From a virus, in IMG/VR virus record IMGVR_UViG_3300048089_000161: a DNA stretch of 54,450 nucleotides; one strand, given 5' to 3'. The stretch's first letter is position 1. Each line of letters starts with the position of its first letter. The notes beneath the pieces were generated by a model that was given only the letters and a program-made list of their open reading frames with translations, ran no database searches and was not told the origin of the DNA. A program made the position numbers and the translations under genes. Below are positions 4,515 to 38,559 of this stretch, piece by piece.

Positions 4515-4787
4515 CTACTGCTCGTCGCTCTGTAGGTCGGTGCGGGCGCCCGGCTGCAGCGGACGCGCATCCCAGTAGCGGCGCATTTCGTCGAGGTCCC
4601 ATTCGTCACGGGTGCTGCCGGGGCGGCGGCGCGGCTGCGGGAAGTCGTCATGCGTGCGTCGCCAGTTGTGCACGGTCTGGCGCGATACGCCGAGTTCGGC
4701 GGCGACTTCCAACATGTTCCCCAACCTCGGTTCCCCCTCGCCCGCGTCCCCTGTCCGCGGATCTTCCCGCTCTGGCATGGCGCTCAT
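4515..4787 (-). CDS. Helix-turn-helix DNA-binding protein, excisionase/MerR-like (HTH_17 type). It is a candidate Xis or a regulator of the transfer operon.
   Basis: 'MLEVAAELGVSRQTVHNWRRTHDDFPQP' is a typical excisionase-family HTH. The gene is divergent from the DUF2637/TraB operon. The true start may be the internal Met (MLEVAA). Confidence 0.65.
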   Translation of the reverse strand: MSAMPEREDPRTGDAGEGEPRLGNMLEVAAELGVSRQTVHNWRRTHDDFPQPRRRPGSTRDEWDLDEMRRYWDARPLQPGARTDLQSDEQ

Positions 4788-4802
4788 CCTGCCCTAACCT
4801 TG

Positions 4803-4841
4803 TTGACACTGTAAAGCAGGTTCACCTACCTTCGAACCTGC
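4803..4841 (+). promoter_or_regulatory. Candidate sigma70-like promoter with an overlapping inverted-repeat operator, upstream of the transfer operon
   Basis: TTGACA (4803-4808), an 18-nt spacer, then TACCTT (4827-4832). An 8-bp inverted repeat, GCAGGTTC (4816-4823) and GAACCTGC (4834-4841), brackets the -10 element. Confidence 0.45.
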
Positions 4842-4877
4842 ACAACGGAATGCCCCGGCCGGCGCCGCGAACGCCAC

Positions 4878-6182
4878 ATGGTCGGGGCGGACCGTGCCCC
4901 CAACCGTCAAGCAGAGGGCCGATCCGTGGCTGATAGTAACGGCGAGCGTCACACCGAACCCGAGCGTGACCGACCGCAGCTCACCGCGCTGCAGCGCAGG
5001 CTCGTCGCAGGCGTTGCCCTCGGCGCTGCCGTGATCTCCCTGATCGGGTTCATCGGTTCGTACGCCGCGGTTCGCACCCTCGCGGAAGCGAAGCGCTTCG
5101 GGGCGTTCGCACTGCTCTTCCCGATCGGTCTCGACGCCGGGATTCTCGTGCTGCTCGCCCTCGACATGTTGCTCACATGGCTGCGTATGCCGCTCGGGCT
5201 GCTGCGCCAAACCGCGTGGCTGCTCACCGCGGCGACGATCGCGTTCAACGGCGCGGCCGCGTGGCCCGATCCGATCGGCGTCGGCATGCACGCCGTGATC
5301 CCGGTTCTGTTCGTGGTCGTCGTCGAGGCGGCTAGGCACGCGATCGGGATCGCCGCGGACATCAGCGCCGCGAAGCACATGGAATCGGTACGCCTGTCGC
5401 GATGGCTGCTCGACCCGATCTCGACGTTCCGTCTGTGGCGGCGTATGAAGCTGTGGGAACTGCGGTCGTACGAGCAAGTGATCGCCCTCGAACAAGAGCG
5501 GCTGACCGAGCGCGCTCGGCTGCGGCACCGGTACGGGCGCAGGTGGCGCTCGAAGGCACCGTTCGAGGCCGTGCTCGCGCTGCGGCTCACCCGGTACGGG
5601 CGCCCCCTCGCCCCGGTCGTCGTCACCACCGCCCCGCCCGCCCCGCTGCCCGAGGCCGCGTACGAGGGCGGCTACGCCCCGGCATGGGACGAGGGCGCCT
5701 CAATGTTCGCCCCCGCCCCGCAGGGTGCCCTCGTGCTACTCGCCCCGCCCTCAACCACCCCCGAACAGAGCGCCCCGCAGCGCCCCGCCCCCGGCGTCGA
5801 GGGCGCCCCGGTCGAGCCCGCCCCGCCGAACGAGGGCGCCCCCGAACGCCCCGCCCCGGAACCCGAGGGCACCCTGCGGGCAGACGAGGGCGACGACCAG
5901 GGCGCCCCGGAGCGCCCCGCCGACGAGGACGAGACGCCCCGTGATGAGCAGCGTCCGCCGACCCGTGACGAGGTGAAGCGGAAGATCCGGGCGCTGTACG
6001 CCGAACTGAACGGCCGGCCCGGCGAGGGCGTGATCGTCAAGCTGCTCGAAGCCGAGGCCGAGCACGGCTACCCCTACACCTCCCGCCGGCACGCGCAGAA
6101 GCTGCGCGACGAGGTCGAGACGGCCGACCCGCGGCTGCTCGAACTCGGCTCGACGAACGTCCGCGCATTCACCGGTTCCTAG
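4878..6182 (+). CDS. DUF2637-like integral membrane protein with a Pro/Ala/Glu-rich C-terminal region (Spd/transfer-associated)
   Basis: Multi-TM N-terminus 'LVAGVALGAAVISLIGFIGSYAAV...ALLFPIGLDAGILVLLALDMLL' matches the DUF2637 pattern seen next to TraB in actinomycete plasmids and AICEs. A GTG at 4926 is an alternative start. Confidence 0.7.
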   Translation: MVGADRAPNRQAEGRSVADSNGERHTEPERDRPQLTALQRRLVAGVALGAAVISLIGFIGSYAAVRTLAEAKRFGAFALLFPIGLDAGILVLLALDMLLTWLRMPLGLLRQTAWLLTAATIAFNGAAAWPDPIGVGMHAVIPVLFVVVVEAARHAIGIAADISAAKHMESVRLSRWLLDPISTFRLWRRMKLWELRSYEQVIALEQERLTERARLRHRYGRRWRSKAPFEAVLALRLTRYGRPLAPVVVTTAPPAPLPEAAYEGGYAPAWDEGASMFAPAPQGALVLLAPPSTTPEQSAPQRPAPGVEGAPVEPAPPNEGAPERPAPEPEGTLRADEGDDQGAPERPADEDETPRDEQRPPTRDEVKRKIRALYAELNGRPGEGVIVKLLEAEAEHGYPYTSRRHAQKLRDEVETADPRLLELGSTNVRAFTGS

Positions 6183-6196
6183 GAAGGACACACCCC

Positions 6197-6346
6197 ATGA
6201 CCACGCCCAAGCGCGCATCTCGGGTCCGTATCAACCTGCTCGGCAGGCGCGGCGAGCAGCCGCTCAACCCGCCGCCCGACGAGCCCGTCGGCCCGCCCGC
6301 CTCGCGTGTCCGGATCAACCTCACCGGCAAGCGCCGAACCGGCTGA
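6197..6346 (+). CDS. Small basic protein (49 aa) with an internal duplication
   Basis: aggaagga RBS, then ATG at 6197. Translation is MTTPKRASRVRINLLGRRGEQPLNPPPDEPVGPPASRVRINLTGKRRTG, with 'SRVRINLxGxR' occurring twice. Confidence 0.45.
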   Translation: MTTPKRASRVRINLLGRRGEQPLNPPPDEPVGPPASRVRINLTGKRRTG

Positions 6347-6363
6347 CGTCACCCCGTCTGTGA

Positions 6364-6377
6364 CTACGACTGCAGTC
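6364..6377. repeat. 14-mer CTACGACTGCAGTC, copy 1, with palindromic core GACTGCAGTC. It sits in the loop/stem of hairpin 6356..6383.
   Basis: Direct reading. GTCTGTGAC (6356-6364) pairs with GTCACAGAC (6375-6383). Confidence 0.8.
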
Positions 6378-6440
6378 ACAGACGCAACCTGACCCCCTCT
6401 CACCAGCGCATAGGCGCACAGGGACACACCCGCGCACGAC

Positions 6441-6454
6441 CTACGACTGCAGTC
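6441..6454. repeat. 14-mer CTACGACTGCAGTC, copy 2. The 12-bp perfect palindrome CGACTGCAGTCG lies at 6444-6455, just upstream of the RBS of CDS 6475.
   Basis: Direct reading. It lies 77 bp downstream of copy 1. Confidence 0.8.
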
Positions 6455-6474
6455 GCAGTGAAGGAGACAGACCG

Positions 6475-7938
6475 GTGTCCGACACCGCAGCACCGCCCGC
6501 AGTGACCGAGGCCGCGCCCACACCACCCGACCCGGCGGCCGCCGCGCCGCCGCCCGCACCCGTACCTGCCCCGCACCCCGCCGAGGCCGAGCCGAAGCAG
6601 CGCACCCCGCGCCGCCGCGGCGTACCGATCGAGCCGCTCGTCATCGGCGCCGGAAACGGCACGGCGGTCATGGCGACCGCCGCCTATCAAGTGGCCGGAC
6701 CGATGGGGATCGCCGCGGCCGCAGGAACCGCCGCCGCCCTGACAGTCGGCGGGATCCTGCAGCGTCGCCGCACGGTTCGTACCCGCACAACGACCGGGGC
6801 GGGGCGCACGCGGGGCGGGGCGGCCGCCGCGAACCGAGGGCGGACTCGGGGCGGGGCGTCCGGCAGAGCGTCGGGGCGGGGCGGATCGGGGCGGGGCGGG
6901 TCCGGCCGCCGGGGCGGCGCCCTCGGGGCGGGCTCGGGGGCGGGTCGTACCCGGCGGGGCGCCCTCGGCCCGCTCGACGGCCGCGGGGCGGGGCGGCTCA
7001 AAACGCCCCAAACGCCCACGCCCACGGGCGCGGGCAGGCACCGCCGCCCCGGCAAGCACAAGAGCACGCCCTCGACCAGGACGCGCACGCCCCGCATCCG
7101 AAACCGGCTCGGCATGGTGCGCCCCGCCGCGAGCGCCGCCCGCCGCGGCATGGCCAACACAGGGCGCGCGCTGCGATCCACGGGGCGCGGCGTCGCGCGC
7201 ACCGCACGCGGCATCGGTCACATGGGGCGCTTTGCTGCCGCCCCTGCTCGCGCACTGTGGCGCAGGACCGAGGCGGCGCGACGAGCTGCTGCTCGCCGAG
7301 TCGTCCGCGCCGCGGGCGCGGTCTGGGATAGCGCCCTTGCCGGGCTCGCCGGTCTCACCGCGGCGTTGTGGCAACGCAGTTGGCGAGGCGGACTCGCCAC
7401 GTTGCGCGCCGTGTGGCAACGCCGGCGCCGCACCCGTGCCGCGCGTCAAGCGGCGAACGGTCCCGCCATGACCGGCCCGACGATCGCGTCGGCCCCGGCC
7501 CCGATCGCCCCGTACGTACGCCGCCCGACGACCGTCGGCGGTTCCCCCTCGAACACTGGAGGACGCATGACCGGCGGACATCACTTCCTTGCACCCGCAA
7601 TGGAAATGGAACGCATAGCGACGACGTACACGCCCGACGGCATGATGCAGGTCGGCCGCGACTTCGCGTCGCTGCCCGACGCCCTCGAACATGTCGCGAA
7701 CTCGATCAAGATCTCGACGGCGCGGGCCGACGCCGAGCAGCCGCTCGACCCTCGAATCGTCGACATCATGCAGCAGATCTACCTGTTGGAGATGAAGGCG
7801 GCACAGCTCGCCCGCGACCTCGCGCCCGCGTTCCGGAAGCTGCACGACCTCGACATCGCCCGCCTGCAGGCGCCGCGCAAGGGCCGACAGGGCGAGTCGC
7901 AGTGGGACGTGCGCGCGAACGCCGACGCGAGTCTCTGA
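6475..7938 (+). CDS. Spd-like (spread/transfer) protein with a Pro/Ala N-terminus, a TM segment and a Gly/Arg-rich low-complexity region
   Basis: The GTG at 6475 follows a gaaggag RBS. It has a hydrophobic stretch 'AVMATAAYQVAGPMGIAAAAGTAAALTVGGIL', a long RGG/RTR-rich region and a structured C-terminal domain. Its position directly upstream of the traB-like gene is typical of Streptomyces plasmid spd genes. Confidence 0.55.
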   Translation: MSDTAAPPAVTEAAPTPPDPAAAAPPPAPVPAPHPAEAEPKQRTPRRRGVPIEPLVIGAGNGTAVMATAAYQVAGPMGIAAAAGTAAALTVGGILQRRRTVRTRTTTGAGRTRGGAAAANRGRTRGGASGRASGRGGSGRGGSGRRGGALGAGSGAGRTRRGALGPLDGRGAGRLKTPQTPTPTGAGRHRRPGKHKSTPSTRTRTPRIRNRLGMVRPAASAARRGMANTGRALRSTGRGVARTARGIGHMGRFAAAPARALWRRTEAARRAAARRVVRAAGAVWDSALAGLAGLTAALWQRSWRGGLATLRAVWQRRRRTRAARQAANGPAMTGPTIASAPAPIAPYVRRPTTVGGSPSNTGGRMTGGHHFLAPAMEMERIATTYTPDGMMQVGRDFASLPDALEHVANSIKISTARADAEQPLDPRIVDIMQQIYLLEMKAAQLARDLAPAFRKLHDLDIARLQAPRKGRQGESQWDVRANADASL

Positions 7939-7949
7939 AAGGGCAGACA

Positions 7950-10067
7950 GTGCAGATCGATTGGGAATCGGGGCACGGTCCGTTCACTGCCCCGCTCAGC
8001 GCCGCCGGTTCCGCGCTCGCCGCCTCGTACGCGGCGAACGCGGCCGGCGTCTCCCCCTGGTGGGGTGCCGCGGTGGCGGGCGCCGGACTCGTCGGCTCGC
8101 ACATCGCAGGCCGGCAGTCCGGCGCGAGCCAAGGCAGCCTCGTACTCCGTGCCGCCGCATGGGTCGGCGCGGGAATGTGGTGCTCGTGGGCAATCACCGC
8201 CGGCCCGTGGACGATGAACTGCCTCGAAGCGCTCGGGGCGGGCGCGGTCGGGTTGGGCGCCGCCCTCGCCGGCAACCGCACGGCACGCCGCCGGGCCGCC
8301 GAGCAGCTCGCAGCCGAGGCGGCCGCCGTCGAGTACGCCGACGTACAGCGCAGGCACCGGGCGATCGCCGCAGACTGGGCCGCTCGTTTCTCCCGCGTGA
8401 GCGGCATCGACGGCGTGCAGGTCGTCGGCGTCGAGGTGTGGGACAGCGGCGGCATGACGCTCGAAGGGCGGTTGCCCGAGGGCGGGTACACGTGGCGCGA
8501 CATGCAGCGCTGCGGCGACGGTCTCGCTGGCGATGCGCGGCTGCCGAACGGCTGCTCGGTCGAGATCACCGAGGGCGCCGACCGCGGCTCGTTCCTCGCG
8601 AACGTCGAGACTGAGAATCAGATCGCGAGCGGGCCGACGCCGTACCCCGACGACTACTCGCCGCGATCGATGAACGACGGGCTACAGCTCGGCCGCCACA
8701 AGGACGGCAGCGAGTCGGCGCCGTGCGTCCGGGAGTTGACGGCGATCTTCACCGGCCGGAAGGGGTCGGGCAAGTCGAACCTGATGAACGTGGCGCTCGC
8801 GGGCCAACTCCGCATGATCGACGTACTCGTGTGGGTGATCGACCTCAACGGCGGCTCGCTCGCGCTGCCGTGGCTGCGCGCATGGCACAAAGCCGGGCGC
8901 CCCGGCCGGCCGCCGATCGATTGGGTCGCCGACACCCCCGAGCGCGTGCTCGCCATGGCCGAGGCGCTGCTGCGCATCGCGAAGGCCAGGAAGCCCGGAT
9001 ACGCCGATCTGCAGATCGAGGCGGACGACGACAAGATCCCCGTGAGTCCGACCGTGCCCGGCATCATCGCAAACGCCGACGAGGTTGCCGAGCTGTACTC
9101 GGGCAAGGCACGCAAGGACCCGATCCTGCGCAAGGCGGGCGACGTGCTGCTGCAGGTCGTCGAACTCGCCCGCGCTGTGGCGTGCAACGTCATCGCCTCG
9201 GCGCTGCGGGCGACGCAGGATGTGCTCGAAGAGCCGCAGCTCGTCGCGCAGTCCGGTCTCAAGATCGCCATGAAGAGCGACGAGCGAGAGATCGCGTACC
9301 TGATGGGGTGGGGCGACAGGATCTCGCCGGAAGACATGCCCGTCGCCGGTACCGGCGCGGTCAAGGTTCTCGACGACCCCGCGCGCCCGTTGGTCGTGTA
9401 CCGCATTACGCCGAGCGAGATCGCGAAGATCGTCGTCGCGACGGCCGAGTACCGGCCTGAACTCGACGAGCTGTCGCGGTCGGCGGCCGGAAAGGCGTAC
9501 GAGCAGCGGTGGGAGAACACCGAGCACCTGTTCAACGGCGCCGTACTGCCCGCACCGGCCGTCGTCGCCGTCCTCGACAAGCCCGTCGTCGAACAGTCGG
9601 CACGCGAGGGATGGACCGACCCAACCGCCGATTGGGGCAAGCCTGCCGAGCCGATCCCGACCGGCGACGCCGCGATCGCCGACGCCGACGCCGCGATGCG
9701 TCGCATTCACGAACAGATCGACGACGCGACCGCCCGCGGCGGCGACCCCGACCTCGACGCCGAGGTTCGCGGCATCTTCGAGGCGAGCGGGCTCGGCTAC
9801 ACCCCGCCCGACCTCGGCGCCGCGGTCGAGGACGTACAGCAGCCCGGCGAGGACCCGCGCAAGGCGATCGTGTTCGAGATCGTGCTCAAGTCCGGCCCGA
9901 ACGGCATCGGGCCCGAGGCGATCCGCGACGTGTTCGCCCGCCTGCACCCCGGCGTCGAAGTACCGCACGCCGCCACGATCGGCCGATGGCTCGGCCCCGA
10001 CCCTCGCGTGCACAAACCCTCTTACGGCCGCTACGCCGTACGACCCGAGAACGGAGTACAGCCGTGA
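7950..10067 (+). CDS. traB: TraB-like FtsK/SpoIIIE-family dsDNA translocase (conjugative transfer ATPase)
   Basis: The GTG at 7950 is the first start after the stop of the upstream gene. N-terminal TM helices are present. Walker A 'TGRKGSGKS' and a Walker-B-like 'VLVWVIDLNGG' are present. The C-terminus 'IVFEIVLKSGPNGIGPEAIRDVFARL...IGRWL' is winged-helix-like. The ORF-track N-terminal extension (7368..) overlaps the spd-like gene and is Arg-rich noise. Confidence 0.8.
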   Translation: MQIDWESGHGPFTAPLSAAGSALAASYAANAAGVSPWWGAAVAGAGLVGSHIAGRQSGASQGSLVLRAAAWVGAGMWCSWAITAGPWTMNCLEALGAGAVGLGAALAGNRTARRRAAEQLAAEAAAVEYADVQRRHRAIAADWAARFSRVSGIDGVQVVGVEVWDSGGMTLEGRLPEGGYTWRDMQRCGDGLAGDARLPNGCSVEITEGADRGSFLANVETENQIASGPTPYPDDYSPRSMNDGLQLGRHKDGSESAPCVRELTAIFTGRKGSGKSNLMNVALAGQLRMIDVLVWVIDLNGGSLALPWLRAWHKAGRPGRPPIDWVADTPERVLAMAEALLRIAKARKPGYADLQIEADDDKIPVSPTVPGIIANADEVAELYSGKARKDPILRKAGDVLLQVVELARAVACNVIASALRATQDVLEEPQLVAQSGLKIAMKSDEREIAYLMGWGDRISPEDMPVAGTGAVKVLDDPARPLVVYRITPSEIAKIVVATAEYRPELDELSRSAAGKAYEQRWENTEHLFNGAVLPAPAVVAVLDKPVVEQSAREGWTDPTADWGKPAEPIPTGDAAIADADAAMRRIHEQIDDATARGGDPDLDAEVRGIFEASGLGYTPPDLGAAVEDVQQPGEDPRKAIVFEIVLKSGPNGIGPEAIRDVFARLHPGVEVPHAATIGRWLGPDPRVHKPSYGRYAVRPENGVQP

Positions 10068-10384
10068 CCAGCACGGAACTTGTGCACGTCCCCCGCGCCG
10101 TCCGCCGACGCCGCTCGAACGCTCGCCGGTACATCGCCGGCGCGATCCTCGGAGTCTCCGACGTGATCCGGGGCGCCGCTCTGCTGGCGATCGGCGTCCT
10201 GTGCGCCGCGAGTGTCGACCCGCACAGCGCATGGAACCCGCACGCCCCCGCACAGGCGATAGCCGTGATCGTGCTCGCGCTGCTCGGCGTCGAGCGGATC
10301 GGGCTCGCCGTGCGCGAGCTGAGCGAGGCGATCGCACACCCCATGCCGCACACCCCGCGCCGCCCGCAGCACCCCGCGCACTGA
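10064..10384 (+). CDS. Small membrane protein (Spd-like), 106 aa
   Basis: GTGA overlap with the traB stop. It has two hydrophobic segments (IAGAILGVS..AALLAIGVLCAA; AIAVIVLALLGV). Confidence 0.6.
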   Translation: MTSTELVHVPRAVRRRRSNARRYIAGAILGVSDVIRGAALLAIGVLCAASVDPHSAWNPHAPAQAIAVIVLALLGVERIGLAVRELSEAIAHPMPHTPRRPQHPAH

Positions 10385-10406
10385 CCGCTCGCCGAAGGAC
10401 TGCCGC

Positions 10407-10883
10407 ATGTTCCCCGAGCCGTACACCAGACCGCAGACCGACGCGAGCCTCGTACCGCGCGTCGTCTCGGTCTCACAGATCACCCCTGCCGCCGAGCAGC
10501 ACCTCGCGCCCGCCCCGCCGCCCGGCATGCGGGTGATCGGGTACGTGCGGATCGACGGCATGCTGCACCCGCAGTACGGGCCCGAGTACGTACCGGCCGT
10601 GCCCATGGCGCCAGCCGCGCCGTCCGGGATCGACCCGCAGGCCCAACGCACCGCCGCGAAGGGCGTGTTCGCCGCCGGGGCGGGCGTCGGCGCGTACTTC
10701 GGCATGCAGGCGCTGCAGATCTTCGTCGACAGCCTCGTGCAGTTCCTCGCGGCCGCCGCGGTGTGCGGGCTCGTGTGGGCGCGGCCGACCGGCCGCCGGG
10801 CGGTGCGCAAGGGACCGACGTACATCAACAACAACAGCGGGTTCCTGGCAGGCTGGAAGTCACAGAACGGCCCGCGCAAGTAG
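10407..10883 (+). CDS. Membrane protein (Spd-like), 158 aa
   Basis: ATG with a gaagga RBS. It has a Pro-rich N-terminus and C-terminal TM helices (GVFAAGAGVGAYFGMQAL...FLAAAAVCGLVW). Confidence 0.65.
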   Translation: MFPEPYTRPQTDASLVPRVVSVSQITPAAEQHLAPAPPPGMRVIGYVRIDGMLHPQYGPEYVPAVPMAPAAPSGIDPQAQRTAAKGVFAAGAGVGAYFGMQALQIFVDSLVQFLAAAAVCGLVWARPTGRRAVRKGPTYINNNSGFLAGWKSQNGPRK

Positions 10884-10895
10884 CACGGAGGAACC

Positions 10896-11072
10896 ATGCC
10901 GAAGAAGATCGAACACGCGCCCGCGGGCAAGTTCATGACCCTCGACGAGATCGCGGCGTTCGTCGCCGACGCGTTCGCCGCAGGCGCCAACGGTGCCGAC
11001 GTCCCCACAGGCCGGCTGTCCTTTGGCGGAAAGCTGCAGCAGCTCGTCGTGAGCGTCGCCGACACCGAGTAG
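10896..11072 (+). CDS. Hypothetical small protein (58 aa)
   Basis: acggagga RBS and ATG at 10896; begins MPKKIEHAPAGKFMTLDEIAAFVADAF. It is the last gene before the operon terminator. Confidence 0.5.
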   Translation: MPKKIEHAPAGKFMTLDEIAAFVADAFAAGANGADVPTGRLSFGGKLQQLVVSVADTE

Positions 11073-11092
11073 CGCCTCGGCCCACCACACCC

Positions 11093-11126
11093 GCGCCCCG
11101 TACCGCACACTCGCGGCACGGGGCGC
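11093..11126 (+). terminator. GC-rich hairpin terminator at the end of the transfer operon
   Basis: gcgccccgt (11093-11101) pairs with acggggcgc (11118-11126), with an inner ccgc/gcgg pairing. Confidence 0.6.
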
Positions 11127-11693: not shown

Positions 11694-11801
11694 TTCATGA
11701 ATCGCATGCGGTTCCTCAACGATTCGCGCGCGAAAGATCGACGAATGATCACTACATCTATCGTCGATAAAAATACGTCCTAGCAGGTCAACACGATCTG
11801 T

Positions 11802-11925
11802 CCCTAGGGGACTCCCTAGGGACTCGCGTGCGCGCGTTCCCCTCCCCTCCCATATATGGGGGGGTGAAGGTAGAGAGATCGTCTACAGGTAGTAGCGGGC
11901 GAGCGCACGAACCCATCTCACTCTC
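11802..11925 (+). repeat. Copy B of the ~125-bp imperfect duplication, in a ~550-bp non-coding, lower-GC region. It is preceded by tandem CCCTAGGG(G)ACT units.
   Basis: ccctaggggactccctagggactcgcgtgcgcgcgttcccctcccctcccatatatgggggggtgaaggtagagag..caggtagtagcgggcgagcgcac. Confidence 0.8.
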
Positions 11926-12247
11926 AACACGCCGCCCTCGCTTGACTCCGGACGATCACCTGTCGCATTCTTGGCGGCAAGTCAGCCATGCCCTGACACA
12001 GAAGCCACCCGACGCCCCGCCTACCGCGGGGCGTTCGTCATTCCCCCAACAGTCGGCCGGGCACCCCACCCTCGACCGGCACGGCGCCGCCTCAACTCCC
12101 CCGAGGCGGCGCCACCCCCACTCGCGCGGGGCGGAGACAGATACGAACCATGGCGGGTTTGCTGCCCGCCCCGCGCGCTACATGCTGGCCACATCCCCCG
12201 CAACACAGGCACCATGGACCCTCGTTCAGAACTACGAGGGGGGACCC

Positions 12248-12619
12248 GTGTTCGGCAGTAAGAAGAACGACCAGGAAAAAGCCGCAGCGCGCCGCCAACG
12301 GCAGATCACCCAAGCCGCGGCGTCCGCCGGCATCACGGTCATGGGGGGAAAGTTCCGCGCTCCGAATCAGGACCCGATACCGATCGACGGCGCCCGCATG
12401 ACCATCGAGCGAGGCGAGGATGCCGGCAAGCGGGTCACCGCGACCCGAGTCCTACTGACCGGAGTGTTCGCGCTGCTGCTGAAGAAAGATCAGACGCAGT
12501 TGTTCATCACCGTCGAGAACGGCGAGCAAGTGATGATGATCCCGGTACCGGCAAAGAAGGAAGCTGCCGCGCGCGTCCTCGCGACCATGGTCAACAGCGA
12601 GGCAACCGGCGTCAGTTGA
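12248..12619 (+). CDS. Hypothetical protein (123 aa)
   Basis: The GTG at 12248 follows a gagggggg RBS. Only this 3' third of ORF 11828..12619 has genic composition (VFGSKKNDQEKAAARRQ...LFITVENGEQVMMIPVPAKKEAAARV). Confidence 0.55.
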   Translation: MFGSKKNDQEKAAARRQRQITQAAASAGITVMGGKFRAPNQDPIPIDGARMTIERGEDAGKRVTATRVLLTGVFALLLKKDQTQLFITVENGEQVMMIPVPAKKEAAARVLATMVNSEATGVS

Positions 12620-12645
12620 TCCCGCCTCGGAAAGGACCCCGTCCC

Positions 12646-12891
12646 ATGCGCGTACACCTGTCGGACGGGGTCCGCGAGGTCGAGATCACAGCCAAGGGGT
12701 ACAGCCGCAAGCAGCTCGACGACGTCGAGAACTCAGCGCTCCGCATCCTCGACGCCCTGCGCAGCGACCAACCGACCGAGCGAGGCAAGACGTTCGGGTT
12801 CGTGCCCGACGTCACCCTCGACAGCAGCGCCGAGCGCGCCGAGCCGTACGTCGACGGCCGCGACCAGGACGACGAGGACGACGACGCATGA
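12646..12891 (+). CDS. Hypothetical acidic protein (81 aa)
   Basis: The ATG at 12646 follows a ggaaagga RBS; begins MRVHLSDGVREVEITAKGYSRKQLDD. Confidence 0.6.
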   Translation: MRVHLSDGVREVEITAKGYSRKQLDDVENSALRILDALRSDQPTERGKTFGFVPDVTLDSSAERAEPYVDGRDQDDEDDDA

Positions 12892-13190
12892 GCGGCGGGT
12901 GGGTCGGCAGCACCCGGCGGGCCGAGCTGCCGCCCGACTGGTACACCGCGATCCGGCCGGCCGTGCTGCAGCGCGACGCGTACCGGTGTCGCAACCGGAT
13001 CGACGGCCGCCCGTGCGCACGCCCGGCGAACCAGGTCGACCACGTCGGCGACAAGGACGATCACCGGATCGAGATGCTGCAGGCGCTGTGCGAGGACTGT
13101 CACGCGAAGAAGAGCAGCGCGCAGGGCAACGCGGCACGGTGGGCCGTACGCATGACCCGCCCCCCGGAGCGACACCCCGGCCTGATCTGA
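12888..13190 (+). CDS. HNH endonuclease
   Basis: ATGA overlap. 'RDAYRCRN...VDHVGDKDDHRIEMLQALCEDCHAKKS' is the classic phage HNH (H-N-H/Cys-box) pattern. Confidence 0.85.
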   Translation: MSGGWVGSTRRAELPPDWYTAIRPAVLQRDAYRCRNRIDGRPCARPANQVDHVGDKDDHRIEMLQALCEDCHAKKSSAQGNAARWAVRMTRPPERHPGLI

Positions 13191-13279
13191 CCCCCCGCCC
13201 CGTATGGCGTACCCCCGGTCGCTGCGTACCCTCCCCCACGCTTCCGTGGGGAGACGGGCACGACGGCGGGAGCAAGCAC

Positions 13280-13837
13280 GTGAACAGCTTCTACGAGGAC
13301 GCAACGGCGCAAGGGTGGCTCACTCAGGCGTTCGGCGTACTGACCATGGATGACCTGTGGACTCGGCAACTCGAAACAGAACACATGTCACCCGACGAGA
13401 TGCGCGAGACAGCCGACTTCGGGGAAGCGCTAGTCGATGCCTGGCTACGGCTCACCGATGGCGGAGCCTTGAAGCCGATCGAGCAGTACATGCGCGTGTA
13501 CTCGTACCGAGCAGTCGAGACAGCTCGGCAGGTAGGTGCGACGTACATGCCGAGCGATCCAGTGGACATGCAAAAGGCTGCCGTCAAGGCATTCTCGACG
13601 CTGGTCAGCGCGAGAGAGCGCGAGGCCGGACAACTTCGATCAAAGATCGAGTCACTTCGGTCCGCCACATGGACTCCTGGCGATCTGTCACCCACTTCCC
13701 GCTGCCTGATCATCTTTGGATGCGCGGTCACCGCCTTCGCCCTGGGACAGCCGCTGATCGGTGGCCTTTTCGGCACTTGGTTCACAACGGCGGGTTGCCC
13801 AAAGTTGACCATCGGCATCATCGAAGGTGGGGGGTGA
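13280..13837 (+). CDS. Hypothetical protein with a C-terminal TM segment (185 aa)
   Basis: GTG at 13280, with a downstream ATG near MDDLW as an alternative start. It lies in a lower-GC segment. The C-terminus is 'CLIIFGCAVTAFALGQPLIGGLFGTWF'. Confidence 0.5.
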   Translation: MNSFYEDATAQGWLTQAFGVLTMDDLWTRQLETEHMSPDEMRETADFGEALVDAWLRLTDGGALKPIEQYMRVYSYRAVETARQVGATYMPSDPVDMQKAAVKAFSTLVSAREREAGQLRSKIESLRSATWTPGDLSPTSRCLIIFGCAVTAFALGQPLIGGLFGTWFTTAGCPKLTIGIIEGGG

Positions 13838-14083
13838 CTCCCCTCCCCGCCCTGCTTGGCGCTCGGGAGGTGCTGCGGGCCTGGTTCTGTACGGGTCTGG
13901 GAAAAACGGCCACGCTGCGGGGCGTGGGCGGTCCGCTGGCGGGCGGGCAGGGATGCGGCAGGCTGATTTGATGGCGCGCGGTTGAGGGGCCGCACATCGC
14001 CTCTCAGCCTGCCGCACTCCCGATACGAACCTGATGCATGCAGGTCAGAGCGCTAAAAGCGTACGCCGGGATATCATGGACCC

Positions 14084-14689
14084 ATGACGACGAGGCGCCC
14101 CTGCGAGCACTGCGACGAGCCGATGCCGATCACGGCTCGGCGGCACGCGCGGTTCTGTCGGCCGGCGTGCCGAGCTGCTGCTCATCGAGCGGCACGAGAG
14201 ATCCCGGCCGAGCTAACGAGCCGGCCGCGATGGGTCCGGCGCACCTCGCGGAAGGTTCCGGTCGCGGTCGACGGCTCGGTCGCGAGCAGCACCGACCCGG
14301 CGTCCTGGTCGCGTTACCGCGACGCCGCCCGCTCGGCTGCGGGCGTCGGGCTCGGGTTCGTCCTCGACGGCGACGGCGTCGTCTGCCTCGACCTCGATCA
14401 CTGCCTCAACGACGAGGGCACGGTCGCGGGTTGGGCGCGCAACGTCCTCGACACGGTCGACGGCTCGACGTGGGTCGAGGTGTCGCAGGGCGGCGACGGG
14501 CTGCACGTGTGGGGGCACGGCCGACTGCCGGGCAACGCGGGGCGCCGGCTACGGCTCGGCGAGGGCACGGTCGAGGTGTACGCGACCGGGCGGTACATCG
14601 CAGTCACGGGGCGGACGTTCGGCGGCACCCCGCAGCGCCTCGCCAATCTGCAGCACGTGATCGAGTGGCTGCAATCTGCCCGCGAGTAG
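14084..14689 (+). CDS. Small stand-alone archaeo-eukaryotic-primase (AEP/Prim-Pol) domain protein with an N-terminal zinc finger
   Basis: N-terminus 'CEHCDEPMP...FCRPACRAAAHR'. AEP motifs are present: 'VCLDLDHC' (DxD), 'VEVSQGGDGLHVWG' (sGxGxH) and 'VEVYATGRYIAVTG'. Confidence 0.6.
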   Translation: MTTRRPCEHCDEPMPITARRHARFCRPACRAAAHRAAREIPAELTSRPRWVRRTSRKVPVAVDGSVASSTDPASWSRYRDAARSAAGVGLGFVLDGDGVVCLDLDHCLNDEGTVAGWARNVLDTVDGSTWVEVSQGGDGLHVWGHGRLPGNAGRRLRLGEGTVEVYATGRYIAVTGRTFGGTPQRLANLQHVIEWLQSARE

Positions 14690-14714
14690 ACATGGATCTT
14701 TAGCTGCCCTGGAT

Positions 14715-15179
14715 CTAGGCGGTCTTATCACACACCATTCGGCAGCTATATGAGCAGTAGGTTCGCCCATATAGGCGGAAGCACCAAGGCCGCCCACACT
14801 CCAGATGACATGGGGCCCACGATCCAGAGCCGCCGCTACCACCTGCTGACCCCGCAGCAAAAAGCGCCGGAAGCATGTTCATCGATGACTCCGAGAATTC
14901 TGCTTGGTTCGCAGAGGCACGCTGCGAGGAACATCCACAGCCGGATGATGGAGCGCTATCGTCGAGCATTGATCCACAGTGCTTGCATTTCAGCGCCTCA
15001 GCATGGATTCGCTCCTTACACAAGGGACAGATACCCCCATGGGCCGGTAGCACCGCAGAAACACTTGATCCGCAATGCTTACACTTCGTTGCCCCCTTCC
15101 GAATTTCCTCCTTACAGAATGGACATTCCACCTGCGAGGAGTCGTCGCTTTCTGTGTTCTCTGCAGAATCATCCATCAT
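14715..15179 (-). CDS. Cys-rich protein with a tandem double zinc-ribbon N-terminus and a novel 7-Cys C-terminal tail
   Basis: 154-aa reverse-strand ORF in a markedly AT-richer island. 'CPFCKEEIRKGATKCKHCGS' and 'CPLCKERIHAEALKCKHCGS' repeats are followed by a Gly/Ser linker and 'WAPCHLECGRPWCFRLYGRTYCSYSCRMVCDKTA'. Confidence 0.6.
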   Translation of the reverse strand: MMDDSAENTESDDSSQVECPFCKEEIRKGATKCKHCGSSVSAVLPAHGGICPLCKERIHAEALKCKHCGSMLDDSAPSSGCGCSSQRASANQAEFSESSMNMLPALFAAGSAGGSGGSGSWAPCHLECGRPWCFRLYGRTYCSYSCRMVCDKTA

Positions 15180-15411
15180 TCCCCCAGTTTCCGAGCGTCG
15201 CCCTCGTCGGACTATCTCGCACAGGTTGGCATCCGTCCACAGTCAGCGCGAAGGCTTCAGTCAATCCGCTCTGCTGCCACTCCTTTAGCGTCCAAGGACC
15301 TCACTGGGCGGGACTGGCCACGTCCTCCCCTTTAACACTCGTAGCCATCAGAAAAGCGTCCTGAAACCAACCAGCAGTCTCGTATCGGCGGGGCGGAATG
15401 GAGGCACAGCC

Positions 15412-15894
15412 GTGGCAGGCAACGGACCGCCCCCGAAAGGGCGCAAGGTACGGCGCAACGCTGACTCAGTGCCGCAGACTGTGCTCCGGTGGGAGCACGC
15501 CGAGGCGCCCGAGCTGCCCGACTTCCGGATCGAGCGCGACGGCGACCTCGTCGAGTTCGTGTGGCCCGAGCGCACCCGCGAGTGGTGGCAGATGTGGATC
15601 GACTCGCCGCAGGCCGATCACTTCGGGTCGTCCGACTGGCAGTACCTACTCGACACCGCCCTGATTCACGCCCGGCTGTGGCGCGGCGATCTGACGGCCG
15701 CGGGCGAACTGCGGCTGCGCGTCGCGGCGTTCGGGGCGACGCCCGCGGACCGGGCCCGGCTGCGCATGGTGTTCGCCGAGGCGGACGGCGCCGACCAGGG
15801 GCGCGGCAGCTCGGGCGTGCCGCCGGCTCGCGAGCTGTACGGGAACCTGCGGCCGATCAACGGCGGGAAGTCCGCCGAGGGCGGCAGCGCGTAG
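15412..15894 (+). CDS. terS: Terminase small subunit
   Basis: GTG start with a ggaatggagg RBS. The N-terminus 'MAGNGPPPKGRKVRRN' is typical of actinophage small terminases. It lies directly upstream of terL. Confidence 0.8.
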   Translation: MAGNGPPPKGRKVRRNADSVPQTVLRWEHAEAPELPDFRIERDGDLVEFVWPERTREWWQMWIDSPQADHFGSSDWQYLLDTALIHARLWRGDLTAAGELRLRVAAFGATPADRARLRMVFAEADGADQGRGSSGVPPARELYGNLRPINGGKSAEGGSA

Positions 15895-15906
15895 CAAGGG
15901 GGCGTC

Positions 15907-17583
15907 ATGCCATGGCGCGGCCCGGAGTACGAGGGCGAGTTCCCGACGCTCGGTTGGTACGTCATCGACTGGATGATCGGGAATCTCGCGCAGCCCGGCC
16001 GTGACGACGGAGCGCCGTACATCCCGACGAAGGAACAGGCCGAGTTCCTGCTGCGGTACTACGAGCTGCACCCGGTGACCGGCAAGCGGGTCATTCACCG
16101 GGCGCTGCTCAGCCGGCCGCGAGGCTGGGGGAAGTCGCCGTTCGTCGGGGCGATCGCGCTCGCCGAGGCGTGTGCCGACGTCGTGCCGGACGGGTTCGAC
16201 TCGTATGGCGAGCCGGTCGGCCGGCCGTGGCACTCGATCCGTACGCCGCTCGTGCGCATCGCAGCCGTGACCGAGCAGCAGACCGACAACACGTGGATCC
16301 CGTTGTTGGAGATGGCGCGCGGGCGGTCGCTGTCGACCGACTACGGGCTCGAATGCCTCGACACCGTGATCTATCTGCCGCGCGGCGAGGTGTCTCCGAT
16401 CACCTCGTCGGCGACGTCGACCAAGGGTGACCCGGCGTGCTTCGCGTCGCTCGACCAGACCGAGGAATGGACGGCGACCAACGGCGGCGTGCGGCTCGCG
16501 AAGGTGATGCGGTTCAACGCCGCGAAGCTGGGCGGCAGCCTGATCGAGACGCCGAACGCGTACACGCCGGGTGGTGGCTCGGTCGCCGAGCAGTCGGCAT
16601 CGGACTATCAGGCGATCATCGACGGCCGGTCGCGGGCGCGAGGGATCCTCGCCGATCACCGTGAGGCGCCGCCCGAGACCGACATGACCGACGAGCAGTC
16701 CCTCGTCGCCGGCCTGCGGTACGCGTACGGCGACAGCAGCGATCACCCCGACGGGTGCGTGCTGCACGATCCGCCGTGTGGGCCCGGCTGGTCGCCGATC
16801 GAGCGGCTCACGAGCGAGTTCTACGACACGTCGAACGAGCCGCAGGATCTGCGGGCCGACTTGTTGAACCAGATCACGCACGCGGCCGACGCGTGGCTGA
16901 CCGAGCCCGAGGTGCGGGCGTCGTCCGACGTCGCCCGCGTTGTGCAGCCTGGCGACCGGATTGTGATCGGGTTCGACGGCTCGCGGAAGCGCGCGCGTGG
17001 GGTGACCGATGCGACGGCGCTGATCGGGTGCCGGCTGTCGGATGGGCACCTGTTCACGATCGGCGTGTGGGAGCAGCCCGAGCGGCCGCAGCTCGGGCCG
17101 GATGGCAAGCCGATCGAGTGGCAGGTGCCCGTCGTCGAGGTGCTCGCCGCGGTGCACGAGGCGTTCGCGACGTACGACGTGGTCGGCATGTACGCCGACC
17201 CCGCCAAGTGGGAAAGCCACGTGGCCGATTGGGAAGCGGCGTACGGGCCGCGCCTGAAGGTGCAGGCGACCCGGCAGCACCCGATCGAGTGGTGGATGAC
17301 CGGCGGTCGGTCGGTACTGATCGTGCGGGCGCTGGAGAAGTTCCACACCGCGCTCACGGAGGGCGAGTTGACGCACGACAGCTCGTCGGCGCTCGTGCGG
17401 CATCTGTGCAACGCCCGCCGTCGGCCCGGCCGTTCGGGTCTGCAGATCGGCAAGGCGCACCCCGACAGTCCGAAGAAGATCGACGCTGCGGTCGCCTCGG
17501 TCCTCGCGTGGCAGTGCCGCCTCGACGCGATCGCGAAGGGGATCACTGCCGAGGAAGAAGAGATGTTCGGCGGGACGTTCTGA
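15907..17583 (+). CDS. terL: Terminase large subunit
   Basis: 558 aa. It contains 'LLSRPRGWGKSPFVGAIAL' (Walker A-like) and a C-terminal nuclease domain. Its size and position are canonical. Confidence 0.9.
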   Translation: MPWRGPEYEGEFPTLGWYVIDWMIGNLAQPGRDDGAPYIPTKEQAEFLLRYYELHPVTGKRVIHRALLSRPRGWGKSPFVGAIALAEACADVVPDGFDSYGEPVGRPWHSIRTPLVRIAAVTEQQTDNTWIPLLEMARGRSLSTDYGLECLDTVIYLPRGEVSPITSSATSTKGDPACFASLDQTEEWTATNGGVRLAKVMRFNAAKLGGSLIETPNAYTPGGGSVAEQSASDYQAIIDGRSRARGILADHREAPPETDMTDEQSLVAGLRYAYGDSSDHPDGCVLHDPPCGPGWSPIERLTSEFYDTSNEPQDLRADLLNQITHAADAWLTEPEVRASSDVARVVQPGDRIVIGFDGSRKRARGVTDATALIGCRLSDGHLFTIGVWEQPERPQLGPDGKPIEWQVPVVEVLAAVHEAFATYDVVGMYADPAKWESHVADWEAAYGPRLKVQATRQHPIEWWMTGGRSVLIVRALEKFHTALTEGELTHDSSSALVRHLCNARRRPGRSGLQIGKAHPDSPKKIDAAVASVLAWQCRLDAIAKGITAEEEEMFGGTF

Positions 17584-18147: not shown

Positions 18148-19572
18148 ATGCTTGACGAAACCCCGGACTCGCCGGACTGGTGGCTGTTGCGCCTCGGCCG
18201 GAAGCTGCGCAAGCGGCAGGGGCGGCTCGACGAATGGTGGCGCTACTACCGGGGCCGGCCGATGCTGCCTGAGCTGCCGAAGAACGCCGAGGCCGCTTTC
18301 GTCGACTTCCAGCGCAAGAGCCGCACGAACTTCTGCGGACTGATCGCCAACGCGTCCGTGCACCGCCTCAATGCGCTCGGCGTGACCGGCCCGGACGGCG
18401 AGCCCGACGCGAACGCCTCTCGCTGGTGGCAGGCGAACCGGCTCGACTCGCGGCAGAAACTCGTGTGGCGCGTGGCCATGGCGCAGAGCGTCGGGTACAT
18501 GTCCGTCGGCCCGCACCCCACCCGGACCGAGGAGAACGGCCGGCCCTCGCCGCTGATCACGGCCGAGCACCCGAGCGAGGCGATCGTCGAGACCGATCCG
18601 GCGACGGGCGAGCCGTACGTCGGGCTCAAGGCGCGGCACGACGACGTCGACGGCTACGGGTACGCGTGGGTGCTGTTCGACGACACCGTGTTTCCCTACC
18701 GGACGACCGAGCGCTGCTACGGGCGGCGGCTGCCGTGGGGGCCTGACTCGTGGGAGTACATCGGCAAGAGCGACCAGGGCGAGCCGCACGACCTCGGGAT
18801 GCTGCCGCTCGTCGAGTTCGCCCGCATGCCCGACTTGGGCGAGGATCCCGAGCCTGAGTTCTTCGGCGTCCTCGACATTCAGGACCGTGTGAACCTCGGC
18901 GTGTTGAACCGCATGGCGGCGTCGAGGTACTCCGGGTTCCGGCAGAAGTGGATCAAGGGGCACAAGTTCCGGAAGCGGATCGACGAGGCGACCGGGCTCA
19001 CGGTCGTTGAGCAGCCGTTCGTGCCCTCGCCGTCCGCGGTGTGGGCGAGCGAAGGGGAGAACGCACAGTTCGGGCAGCTCGACGCGACCGACCTGTCGGG
19101 GTTCCTGAAAGAGCACGAGTCGGATGTGCGCGACATGCTGATCGTGTCGCAGACTCCCGCGTACTACTACGCCGGCGACCTCGTGAACATCAGCGCCGAC
19201 ACGATCGGCGCGCTCGACATCCTGCACGTGGCGAAGATGCTCGAACACATCGCGTCGTTCGGCGAGCAGCTCGAAACCGTGATGGCGCTTGCGGCTGCGC
19301 AGGCGGGCGTTCATGCCGACTACACCGAGGCCGAGGTGCGGTGGGCGAACCCGGCGCACGTGAGTCTCGCGGTCAAGGCCGACGCCGCGACGAAGCTCAA
19401 GTCGATCGGCTACCCGCTCGACATCATCGCCGAGCAGATGGGCGAGACGCCCGCGACGGTCCGCCGAATCACGGCGGGTGCCGCCTCGCAGGCGTTGCTC
19501 GCCGCCTCGCTGCTGCCCGCGAACCCGGCGCCGACGGCGGGCAATCTGCCCGAGGACGGTACCGGTGGGTGA
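18148..19572 (+). CDS. Portal protein (SPP1 gp6-like)
   Basis: 474 aa. 'WWLLRLGRKLRKRQGRLDEWWRYYRG' is a typical actinophage portal N-terminus. It follows terL. Confidence 0.9.
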   Translation: MLDETPDSPDWWLLRLGRKLRKRQGRLDEWWRYYRGRPMLPELPKNAEAAFVDFQRKSRTNFCGLIANASVHRLNALGVTGPDGEPDANASRWWQANRLDSRQKLVWRVAMAQSVGYMSVGPHPTRTEENGRPSPLITAEHPSEAIVETDPATGEPYVGLKARHDDVDGYGYAWVLFDDTVFPYRTTERCYGRRLPWGPDSWEYIGKSDQGEPHDLGMLPLVEFARMPDLGEDPEPEFFGVLDIQDRVNLGVLNRMAASRYSGFRQKWIKGHKFRKRIDEATGLTVVEQPFVPSPSAVWASEGENAQFGQLDATDLSGFLKEHESDVRDMLIVSQTPAYYYAGDLVNISADTIGALDILHVAKMLEHIASFGEQLETVMALAAAQAGVHADYTEAEVRWANPAHVSLAVKADAATKLKSIGYPLDIIAEQMGETPATVRRITAGAASQALLAASLLPANPAPTAGNLPEDGTGG

Positions 19573-35961: not shown

Positions 35962-36240
35962 ATGGGTGACACAGCACGGCCGATCCCCGAGCGGCTCGGC
36001 GATCAGGAAGACCAGGCGGCGCACCTCGTGCGCACCGGCAACGGCCCGACGGTCGAGGACGAGCAGCGGCTACTCGCCGAGCAGTTCGGCGCTCCGGACA
36101 TGGCCGGGTTCTACGTCGGGCCCGGTCTGGCCGACGGACTCACCGGCACAGCGGCCGACCAGGACGACGAGCCCGAGCCGGCCGTCGACGAGGGCGACGC
36201 CCCGGCCGCGGACACCGCGAAGGGGGGCGAGTCCGCATGA
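35962..36240 (+). CDS. Hypothetical acidic protein (92 aa)
   Basis: ORF with an ATG start, coupled (ATGA) to the downstream lysin. Confidence 0.55.
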   Translation: MGDTARPIPERLGDQEDQAAHLVRTGNGPTVEDEQRLLAEQFGAPDMAGFYVGPGLADGLTGTAADQDDEPEPAVDEGDAPAADTAKGGESA

Positions 36241-38493: not shown

Positions 38494-38500
38494 CAGCACT

Positions 38501-38536
38501 GCGCCCCTGTCTGGCCTCACGGCCGGGCAGGGGCGC
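38501..38536 (+). terminator. Terminator hairpin ending the late operon
   Basis: gcgcccctg (38501-38509) pairs with caggggcgc (38528-38536), plus inner pairing. Confidence 0.6.
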
Positions 38537-38559
38537 CTCTGTCGTTCCTCAACGTGACT

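Follow-up and report, generated by a model that had tools for sequence, protein, structure and literature searches.

What is a plasmid-type DNA transfer unit doing in the genome of a temperate phage? This question is raised by the IMG/VR virus record IMGVR_UViG_3300048089_000161, a stretch of 54,450 nucleotides (the window in the following). Between positions 4515 and 11126, it holds a gene unit encoding a protein with the domain DUF2637, a 487-amino-acid (aa) membrane protein (p487) and a 705-aa putative DNA translocase. An earlier note, made from the sequence alone, had likened this unit to the transfer region of a Streptomyces plasmid or of an actinomycete integrative and conjugative element (AICE). 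In the apparatus described for actinomycetes, TraB hexamers form a membrane channel, recognise the transfer locus acting in cis (clt) by a winged helix-turn-helix (wHTH) domain at their C-terminus and pump unprocessed double-stranded DNA (dsDNA) (Reuther 2006; Vogelmann 2011; PMC4447253). SpdB2 is an oligomeric, pore-forming and dsDNA-binding protein with four transmembrane (TM) segments (Thoma 2015, PMC4447253). An interaction of SpdB2 with the C-terminus of TraB has been described, and intramycelial spreading requires the protein (PMC4447253).

The unit at 4878-11072 is read here as a phage-resident version of this dsDNA transfer or spreading apparatus, a reading to which we give slightly better than even chances. 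Capsid-independent movement of phage dsDNA is proposed because the window encodes the full set of components and not only the Spd-like part.

A putative transfer unit in a complete phage genome

The G+C content of the window is about 70% and uniform along its length. Nucleotides 1-127 are identical to nucleotides 54324-54450, so the contig is circular with 54,323 unique bases. The phage genes were called by PHROG scans (Table 1). The structural region shares 78-81% nucleotide identity with the temperate Streptomyces phages SF1, SF3 and VWB. Because of this identity and of the PHROG gene set, the window is a complete genome of a temperate VWB/SF1-like siphovirus, as the earlier note had held: packaging, virion, lysis, repressor-like and integrase genes are all present. 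An AICE is defined by Int, Xis, Rep and Tra functions without virion genes. The window contains the full virion, packaging and lysis set, and the element is a phage, not an AICE. Virion genes and a tra locus stand on one replicon, as in a plasmid-phage. No plasmid Rep or Par gene was found among the 10 early genes scanned, which are a part of the gene content.

A divergent TraB-type translocase

In BLASTP comparisons, the 705-aa protein gave an E-value of 0.16 with pIJ101 Tra, which is noise level, and of 0.004 with a TraB-like protein of plasmid pDSM40587. These pairwise tests were uninformative, and profile and fold comparisons were therefore used. With a profile of the translocase family, hhalign aligned pJV1 TraB (99.3%, E 1.7e-20) over 459 columns reaching into the C-terminal winged helix (residue 671 of 678). 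The pDSM40587 TraB-like protein (99.2%, E 9e-20) aligned over 411 columns starting in the TM region (column 74). The alignment with pIJ101 Tra (98%, E 2.3e-13, 296 columns) spans the pre-ATPase domain and the motor, and that with the C-terminal half of Escherichia coli FtsK (97.3%, E 2.5e-11, 262 columns) the motor only. Because the homology extends beyond the motor and is stronger than that to E. coli FtsK, the 705-aa protein is classed, on profiles and a predicted structure, as a divergent TraB-type translocase rather than a generic FtsK. A comparison with conjugative TraB proteins had been advised in the earlier note, and homology to pJV1 TraB and pIJ101 Tra was its outcome. Grouping with generic phage FtsK-like proteins was not seen. 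A canonical TraB/FtsK query retrieves the FtsK-like proteins of Mycobacterium and Bacillus phages, and neither this family nor the plasmid-phage pZL12.

The AlphaFold2 model of the protein, computed with 63 homologues in the alignment, has a predicted local distance difference test (pLDDT) score of 85.6. Helices at 13-31, 38-56, 61-84 and from 89 onwards form an Ala/Gly/Trp-rich, predicted N-terminal TM domain. Next come a domain rich in beta structure (157-250) and the P-loop ATPase (260-500); beyond a disordered linker, three helices and a strand with pLDDT above 90 make up a C-terminal winged helix (637-697). In Foldseek, the model matched the FtsK motor (6t8b/2ius, E ~2e-15, ~405 columns) and TcpA, the FtsK-like coupling protein of pCW3 (3e-15). 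The TraB architecture proposed earlier, with N-terminal helices (four in the model), an FtsK motor and a winged-helix C-terminus, is thus supported by model, fold search and profiles alike.

Clustered at 50%, the translocase family comprises 689 representatives; almost all of them are about 700 aa long and align from residue 2-10. K275 of Walker A and D377 and E378 of Walker B are invariant in 98 diverse members. The Pfam model FtsK_SpoIIIE is reached by 8 of 64 relatives and also by the member on plasmid pSQ10.

Several translocases of the phage clade described below (P0008, P0021, P0079, P0082, P0083 and P0087) are longer, with about 790 aa. They carry a canonical FtsK-gamma domain (PF09397) appended after the family's own C-terminal winged helix. 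The extra DNA-recognition domain in these members is counted in favour of a transfer function.

Probable membrane partners of the translocase

The DUF2637 protein, which had been predicted to have four TM helices, matches the Pfam domain over residues 46-200 and shows four hydrophobic helices at roughly 38-160. These are followed by a coiled region, by a linker rich in Pro and Glu and by a small domain at the C-terminus. It also matches phrog_29003 (1.5e-80) and is 68% identical to gp24 of phage VWB, itself a DUF2637 protein (1.2e-35). Both VWB and phiC31 encode SpdB2 homologues (Thoma et al. 2015, PMC4447253); by sequence comparison, the window protein belongs with gp24 and is linked in this indirect way to what has been termed an SpdB2 homologue of VWB. 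DUF2637 proteins are also found in the AICE module (L066, 5.5e-37) and on pDSM40587.

The second partner, p487, consists of a Pro/Ala-rich N-terminus, one TM segment, a long Gly/Arg-rich low-complexity tract and a conserved helical C-terminal domain at about 360-480, which agrees with its earlier description as a Gly/Arg-rich TM protein. No Pfam, PHROG or NCBIfam family matched p487. AlphaFold2 predicts an all-helical C-terminal domain at low confidence (pLDDT 57.6), too low for a fold search. This domain is encoded immediately upstream of a translocase homologue in every relative examined, namely Hiyaa, the Thermobifida phage P1312, pDSM40587, pAGRA3207_2, pZL12 (pZL12.72c), 18 of 18 IMG/VR loci and the genome loci, AICEs included. 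Judged by this linkage, p487 would be an obligate partner of the translocase. In pDSM40587, the C-terminal domain of the p487-like protein is duplicated. In Hiyaa (MK279841.1), the p487-like open reading frame (ORF) lies on the plus strand (L011 17218-19281, ~67218-69281; 34% identity over 238 aa) and overlaps gp100 (minus strand) and gp101 of the record. Galactica annotates a plus-strand gene, and the Hiyaa annotation is probably a mis-annotation.

The FtsK motor fold, together with the FtsK-gamma domain of some members, could also serve segregation or partition. The pump would then clear or distribute DNA of the phage (or the host) where vegetative or sporulation septa close, and so secure inheritance of the episomal or replicating genome rather than move DNA into compartments that are already apart; the phage literature reads such genes as 'DNA segregation' or development-related (PMC4569894, PMC13587820). 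Nevertheless, plasmid TraB stands closer to the family than FtsK does, also outside the motor, and the family is strictly linked to the SpdB2-like and p487 membrane partners. Moreover, it belongs to the transfer module of AICEs, which already depend on host FtsK for segregation. A role in segregation is therefore considered quite unlikely.

Distribution in AICEs, plasmids and prophages

A genome scan with one genome per species yielded 38 loci, all in Streptomyces, Kitasatospora or Streptacidiphilus. Twelve are prophages with translocases of 45-79% identity; those tested have a terminase and a portal gene 5-8 kb downstream and represent three different terminase PHROGs. The remaining 26 loci are pMEA300-type AICEs (translocase identity 32-36%). 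Their gene order is a divergent GntR/UTRA gene, small ORFs, DUF2637, p487-like, translocase, Prim-Pol, RepAM (DUF3631), Xis (HTH_17) and tyrosine integrase; RepAM has been assigned to PF12307 (Ghinet et al. 2011, PMC3218068). The trio of DUF2637, p487-like and TraB-like genes is the only candidate transfer module in these 26 AICEs. The p487-like/TraB-like pair also occurs on small plasmids. The small plasmids pSQ10 and pAGRA3207_2 have no FtsK-like gene other than the family member, which is located downstream of a divergent GntR gene. The resemblance of the unit to a plasmid or AICE transfer region, as proposed earlier, is thereby borne out.

The closest plasmid-database match (68% identity) lies on NZ_CP108596.1, another close homologue is found inside an integrated prophage, and other relatives are chromosomally integrated. 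NZ_CP108596.1 (L004), listed in PLSDB as 'plasmid unnamed1' of Streptomyces sp. NBC_01177 (51,758 bp, circular), is a complete phage genome. It carries terS, terL, portal, capsid, tape measure, LysM endolysin and serine recombinase genes in addition to the same transfer module, and is a prophage kept as an episome or else the circular assembly of an induced phage. The linear 29-kb plasmid pDSM40587 of S. mobaraensis (L008) encodes two FtsK-like translocases (within 4962-7070 and 11707-15983). One is a TraB-like gene, which passes Pfam FtsK_SpoIIIE, lies downstream of a GntR gene and is followed by a DUF2637 gene; the other is the family member paired with a p487-like gene.

The unit might also be a passenger or an artefact, i.e., a piece of an AICE or plasmid undergoing decay within a prophage, or a chimeric assembly. 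In VWB, SF1 and SF3, the flanking synteny is indeed kept, but p487 and the translocase are missing. In the window, by contrast, the ORFs are intact, with coding-type G+C content at third codon positions (GC3), invariant catalytic residues and uniform G+C content, and no AICE Rep, Int or Kor gene stands beside the module. The arrangement recurs in more than 30 independent prophages and viral contigs of at least three terminase lineages and within a clade of bootstrap 100. By its distribution, this explanation is already largely refuted, and we regard it as hardly credible.

Phylogeny of the translocase family

A neighbour-joining tree of the translocase motor region (68 taxa, 100 bootstraps) splits the whole family from pJV1 TraB and the pDSM40587 TraB-like protein (bootstrap 98). 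Within the family, AICE translocases form one clade (91), and those of temperate phages, prophages and IMG/VR contigs another (33 taxa, bootstrap 100), with Hiyaavirus as its sister or nearest outgroup (64). The plasmids, P1312 and pZL12 have no resolved position. All phage-clade copies are intact, and they extend over at least three terminase lineages. Selection within phages is indicated because 33 taxa from three terminase families form a single clade of intact copies at bootstrap 100. On this sequence evidence, the pattern argues that the clade is old, has spread over several phage lineages and functions in phage biology rather than consisting of recent AICE insertions. The homology, architecture, conserved catalytic residues and gene linkage, distribution and phylogeny of the module are established.

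No integrase or repressor is annotated or detectable in the Hiyaavirus genomes, which encode their own DNA polymerase, primase and helicases. These phages are apparently virulent, and the module is therefore not limited to AICE-like prophage transfer. This bears on the explanation that the module serves AICE-like conjugation only, moving an excised prophage from a lysogenic donor to a recipient mycelium in the manner of pSAM2, pMEA300 or pZL12, with no role in infection. Such a role would suit the joint presence of an integrase, an Xis-like helix-turn-helix (HTH) gene and a Tra module, the same trio in AICEs and the precedent of pZL12 (PMC3583192). It would also suit the assembly of a close relative as a circular 51.8-kb 'plasmid' and of the window as a circular contig. 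The Hiyaaviruses, however, do not fit it. Neither do the lack of an AICE-type Rep (RepSA, RepAM or Prim-Pol) among the early window genes tested and the failure to find a GntR-type Kor repressor or a clt. Conjugation as the sole role is accordingly held to be unlikely. Intramycelial spread of phage DNA fits better than purely AICE-like prophage transfer. General mycelial spread and prophage conjugation are not exclusive, and conjugal transfer is, by analogy, feasible, as seen in pZL12.

Host takeover, exclusion or defence is a further explanation: the membrane ATPase would block superinfecting phage or plasmid DNA, or arrest growth in the manner of Kil. Unregulated TraB is toxic and gives a Kil phenotype (PMC4447253), and the 705-aa protein matches phrog_31069 (3.2e-87), which is filed under 'moron, auxiliary metabolic gene and host takeover'. 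PADLOC, however, gave no meaningful match, only marginal P-loop and HTH matches, and homology, synteny and phylogeny all link the module to transfer modules. Such a function seems improbable.

A conserved box pair as candidate cis site

The 14-mer GACNGCAGTCRCAG occurs twice in the interval that separates the DUF2637 gene from the p487 gene, at 6368-6381 and at 6445-6458, with a spacing of 77 bp. These are its only exact copies in the window. The corresponding box pair (Table 1) is nearly invariant in nine aligned genomes, in which CGAC.GCAGTCGCAGTGAAGGAG at box 2 is conserved except for one variable base. Phage-clade members whose translocases are as little as about 47% identical have it in the same place, and it is absent from AICEs, plasmids and Hiyaavirus. 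Given this conservation, the pair could be an internal operator or a translocase recognition site, and is kept as a candidate for both. An RNA hairpin was rejected as the main explanation of box 1: its 3' half is invariant, while its 5' half varies without compensation. Furthermore, box 2 is not palindromic in most relatives.

Direct and inverted repeats of 10-12 bp are located directly 3' of the translocase gene in pDSM40587 (15984-16095), pSQ10 (L006, 10936-11010) and P1312 (L002, 8562-8645). They are possible clt sites or terminators with no counterpart in the window.

Proposed mechanism and points against it

In the proposed mechanism, the 705-aa protein would act as a TraB-type hexameric membrane translocase together with p487, the SpdB2-like pore-type DUF2637 protein and two small membrane proteins. 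Once infection has occurred or a prophage has been induced, the phage genome, circular or in replication, would be bound through the C-terminal winged helix of the translocase at a cis site, for which the conserved box pair 6368/6445 is the best candidate. Naked dsDNA could then be pumped across septal cross-walls into neighbouring hyphal compartments and possibly also across fused or contacting hyphae into other mycelia. We infer the substrate, which would be the phage's own DNA, as well as the cis site, any phenotype, and when and in which direction DNA would be moved. In its most specific form, the proposal is that a large clade of integrative temperate Streptomyces siphoviruses and its apparently virulent Hiyaavirus sisters domesticated an AICE-type TraB/SpdB2 pump. 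Naked phage genomes would pass septal cross-walls and move between hyphae by a capsid-independent, DNase-insensitive route that is peculiar to multicellular hosts and directed by the GACNGCAGTCRCAG cis site. This version is plausible but tentative, with chances somewhat below even.

Several points weigh against reading the unit as a transfer apparatus. The 705-aa protein has no Pfam (FtsK_SpoIIIE included), NCBIfam or PDB sequence match above threshold, and neither pIJ101 SpdB nor the 371-aa protein of pJV1 matches DUF2637. The GntR-type Kor repressor, which controls Tra in plasmids and AICEs, is missing from the window. K-mer cluster scans (7-10-mers) of the whole window and of the gene's 3' region in 19 loci revealed no clt-like cluster in the window, only coding low-complexity repeats. 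In addition to its p487-like/translocase pair, pDSM40587 holds a TraB-like gene of the canonical kind; the pair may thus be accessory in some replicons and not the primary transfer motor. The equation of traA-traC of pZL12 with genes 71c-73c rests on an indirect citation. Finally, none of the clade's integrative phages has been the subject of an experiment.

Gene layout and other features of the genome

All ORFs named in the earlier note were found at their coordinates, with a coding-type GC3 of 0.86-0.94. A megablast search of the module against the phage collection gave no match. The features of the unit and of the phage genome are listed in Table 1.

Table 1 Features of the putative transfer unit and phage genes of the window (positions refer to the 54,450-nucleotide stretch)
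Feature	Position	Strand	Remarks
90-aa HTH protein (Xis/MerR-like)	4515-4787	-	phrog_66 'excisionase and transcriptional regulator', 2.3e-10
Divergent intergenic region	4788-4877		putative promoter/operator: TTGACA at 4803-4808 and inverted repeat AGGTTC...GAACCT
DUF2637 polytopic membrane protein, 434 aa, SpdB2-like	4878-6182	+	Pfam DUF2637, 7.6e-38
49-aa basic ORF, doubtful gene	6197-6346	+	internal 40-nt direct repeat
Box 1	6364-6381		GACTGCAGTCACAG; inside hairpin-capable palindrome; candidate operator or clt-like site
Box 2	6441-6458		GACTGCAGTCGCAG; directly upstream of ribosome-binding site and GTG start of the 487-aa gene
p487, 487-aa Gly/Arg-rich membrane protein	6475-7938	+	one TM segment; GTG start
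TraB-type translocase (by profile and model), 705 aa	7950-10067	+	Walker A GRKGSGKS, Walker B ...ADE
106-aa protein	10064-10384	+	2 predicted TM helices; weak homologues in L004, L009
158-aa protein	10407-10883	+	1 predicted TM helix; 60-73% identity in L004, L009, L013, L034, L035, L043
58-aa soluble protein, last gene of unit	10896-11072	+	GC3 0.90; no TM segment
GC-rich hairpin	11093-11126	+	-31.2 kcal/mol, z = -4.04, 0/200 shuffles fold as well
terS-like gene	15469-15894		PHROG
terL	15907-17583		PHROG
Portal	18148-19572		PHROG
Major capsid protein	21598-22644		PHROG
Tape measure protein, 1448 aa	26108-30454		PHROG
Endolysin	36237-37052		PHROG
Repressor-like regulator	38370-39875		PHROG
Tyrosine integrase	42669-43640		PHROG

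The divergent regulator in the window is an Xis/MerR-type HTH protein, as opposed to GntR/UTRA in the AICE and plasmid relatives. Its assignment to the excisionase family, made in the earlier note, agrees with the PHROG match; Pfam matches to HTH_17, HTH_23 and MerR are weak and below threshold. Homologues at the same position are 70-82% identical in the prophages L009, L013 and L034 and 40% in VWB, and the protein probably regulates the divergent promoter region. For the promoter/operator suggested at 4803-4841, the TTGACA element and the inverted repeat are present, but a consensus scan detected no promoter or sigma-70-type site in the 4788-4877 region.

The 49-aa basic peptide exists as an ORF, but its status as a conserved gene is doubtful. 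Its direct repeat encodes the peptide ASRVRINL twice, and no homologue was found in any related locus examined. In eight close relatives, the stretch 6197-6340 (about 150 bp) is absent or unalignable while the flanking DNA is conserved. The ORF is probably not a conserved gene, and from the alignment the stretch looks like a local insertion or duplication specific to this genome. Of three small membrane proteins predicted downstream of the translocase, TM segments are supported in the 106-aa and 158-aa products but not in the 58-aa one, which has no Pfam, PHROG or NCBIfam match. The start of the 106-aa gene overlaps the translocase stop codon (translational coupling). The strong hairpin behind the unit is real but has no T-run; it is the probable terminator of the unit.

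Other features of the genome were recorded beside the unit. The 127-nucleotide end identity corresponds to the k-mer overlap of a closed assembly and to a free circular or terminally redundant phage genome. A 53,741-bp contig of the Joint Genome Institute (JGI; P0276) encodes a 274-aa protein 100% identical to the C-terminal 56% of p487; an essentially identical phage genome is therefore present in a JGI metagenome, where the gene was given a start further downstream. The top PHROG match of the tape measure protein is the 'endolysin' family phrog_971 (8e-200), which suggests a tape measure protein with a cell-wall-hydrolase domain. A Gp3-like recombination directionality factor domain (PF18897, 3e-46), of a type known from the serine-integrase phage phiC31, is encoded at 48995-50080, in the same genome as the tyrosine integrase and the separate Xis-like HTH gene. 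Three copies of GCGCTTGGCC (42438-42624) lie directly upstream of the integrase gene and three of GATCGTGGA(C) (44580-44697) about 1 kb downstream; both are possible arm-type or operator sites.

Implications

If the transfer reading is correct, mycelial phages would have a second, capsid-independent route of spreading from cell to cell, and the line between phages and conjugative elements would be blurred. A temperate phage could establish and spread lysogeny through a multicellular mycelium, and with each adsorption a virulent phage, Hiyaa for example, could infect a larger territory. This would help to explain how a prophage fills a multinucleate, compartmentalised mycelium and reaches the spores, and how a single infection passes beyond the compartment of entry. 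The interpretation of plaques and pocks, estimates of horizontal gene transfer among producers of antibiotics and the way in which Streptomyces vectors are designed from phages would also be affected. Moreover, this TraB clade escapes the Pfam model FtsK_SpoIIIE, and AICE or phage surveys based on that model would probably miss it. Since isolated phages (Hiyaa, Galactica) and sequenced lysogens exist, the proposal is testable now.

Comparison with known systems

Streptomyces plasmid-phages with a conjugal transfer locus have been described. According to PMC3583192 and PMC4170104, pZL12/phiZL12 (Zhong et al. 2010, J Bacteriol 192:3747) is such an element and pFP4 (Chen et al. 2012) another. pZL12 is one experimental precedent for a phage with such a transfer route. 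Like the window, it combines a tailed-phage genome with an FtsK-like transfer locus and two adjacent genes. pZL12.71c is a member of the translocase family (25% identity, 3e-16), and pZL12.72c shares the C-terminal motif of p487 (8e-5). At the DUF2637 position, pZL12.73c is a polytopic membrane protein with E 0.012 against the DUF2637 protein and no Pfam DUF2637 match. The order 73c-72c-71c is thus syntenic with the trio of the window, but only 71c and 72c are detectably homologous. A canonical TraB query found no other FtsK-like gene in the pZL12 record. In contrast to the window, pZL12 is a 90-kb autonomous plasmid with repA, parAB and P1-like packaging, whereas the window is a 54-kb, VWB-like genome with a tyrosine integrase and no plasmid Rep/Par detected among the early genes scanned. 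At about 25% identity, the two translocases occupy different parts of the tree.

The pMEA300-type AICEs of Streptomyces and Kitasatospora share DUF2637, p487-like and TraB-like genes in the same order with the window. They differ from it in having Prim-Pol, RepAM and a repressor of the GntR/UTRA type and in lacking virion genes. Their translocases fall into a clade separate from that of the phages (91 versus 100), and the box pair is absent. TraB of pSVH1, pSG5 and pJV1 and Tra of pIJ101 have the TM domain, FtsK-like motor and C-terminal wHTH in common with the window protein, and their plasmids an operon with small membrane proteins and translational coupling. The family is, however, monophyletic against these proteins (98) and always has a p487 partner. 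Unlike those plasmids, the window phage has no GntR regulator, and k-mer scans detected no cluster of 8-bp TraB recognition sequences (TRS) or clt.

Among phages, the Hiyaaviruses Hiyaa, Galactica, Keanu and Spocter ('FtsK-like DNA translocase') have a syntenic block composed of a membrane protein gene, a small ORF and the genes of a p487-like protein and of the translocase, the last with 35% identity over the full length. They differ in genome size (81-83 kb), in encoding a DNA polymerase, a primase and helicases of their own, in lacking integrase, repressor and box pair, and in an upstream membrane protein that is not detectably DUF2637. VWB shares the synteny of p303, HTH and DUF2637 genes upstream of the terminase genes. 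In place of p487 and the translocase it has the unrelated gp25 and gp26, i.e., only the Spd-like part as against a full motor module. SF1 and SF3 are structural relatives that likewise lack p487 and the translocase. 'FtsK-like' genes are annotated in Hiyaavirus and P1312 (PMC4569894), and phage papers relate them to replication, segregation or development.

Conjugative plasmid-phages, actinophage SpdB2 homologues and phage 'FtsK-like DNA translocase' annotations are therefore already known. As far as the literature shows, four aspects appear to be new. The first is the three-gene AICE-type module of an SpdB2-like protein, p487 and a TraB clade invisible to Pfam, of which the pair is also found on plasmids. 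The second is the large phage-specific clade that includes integrative temperate siphoviruses, and the third its apparently virulent sister group. The fourth is the conserved box pair specific to the phage clade.

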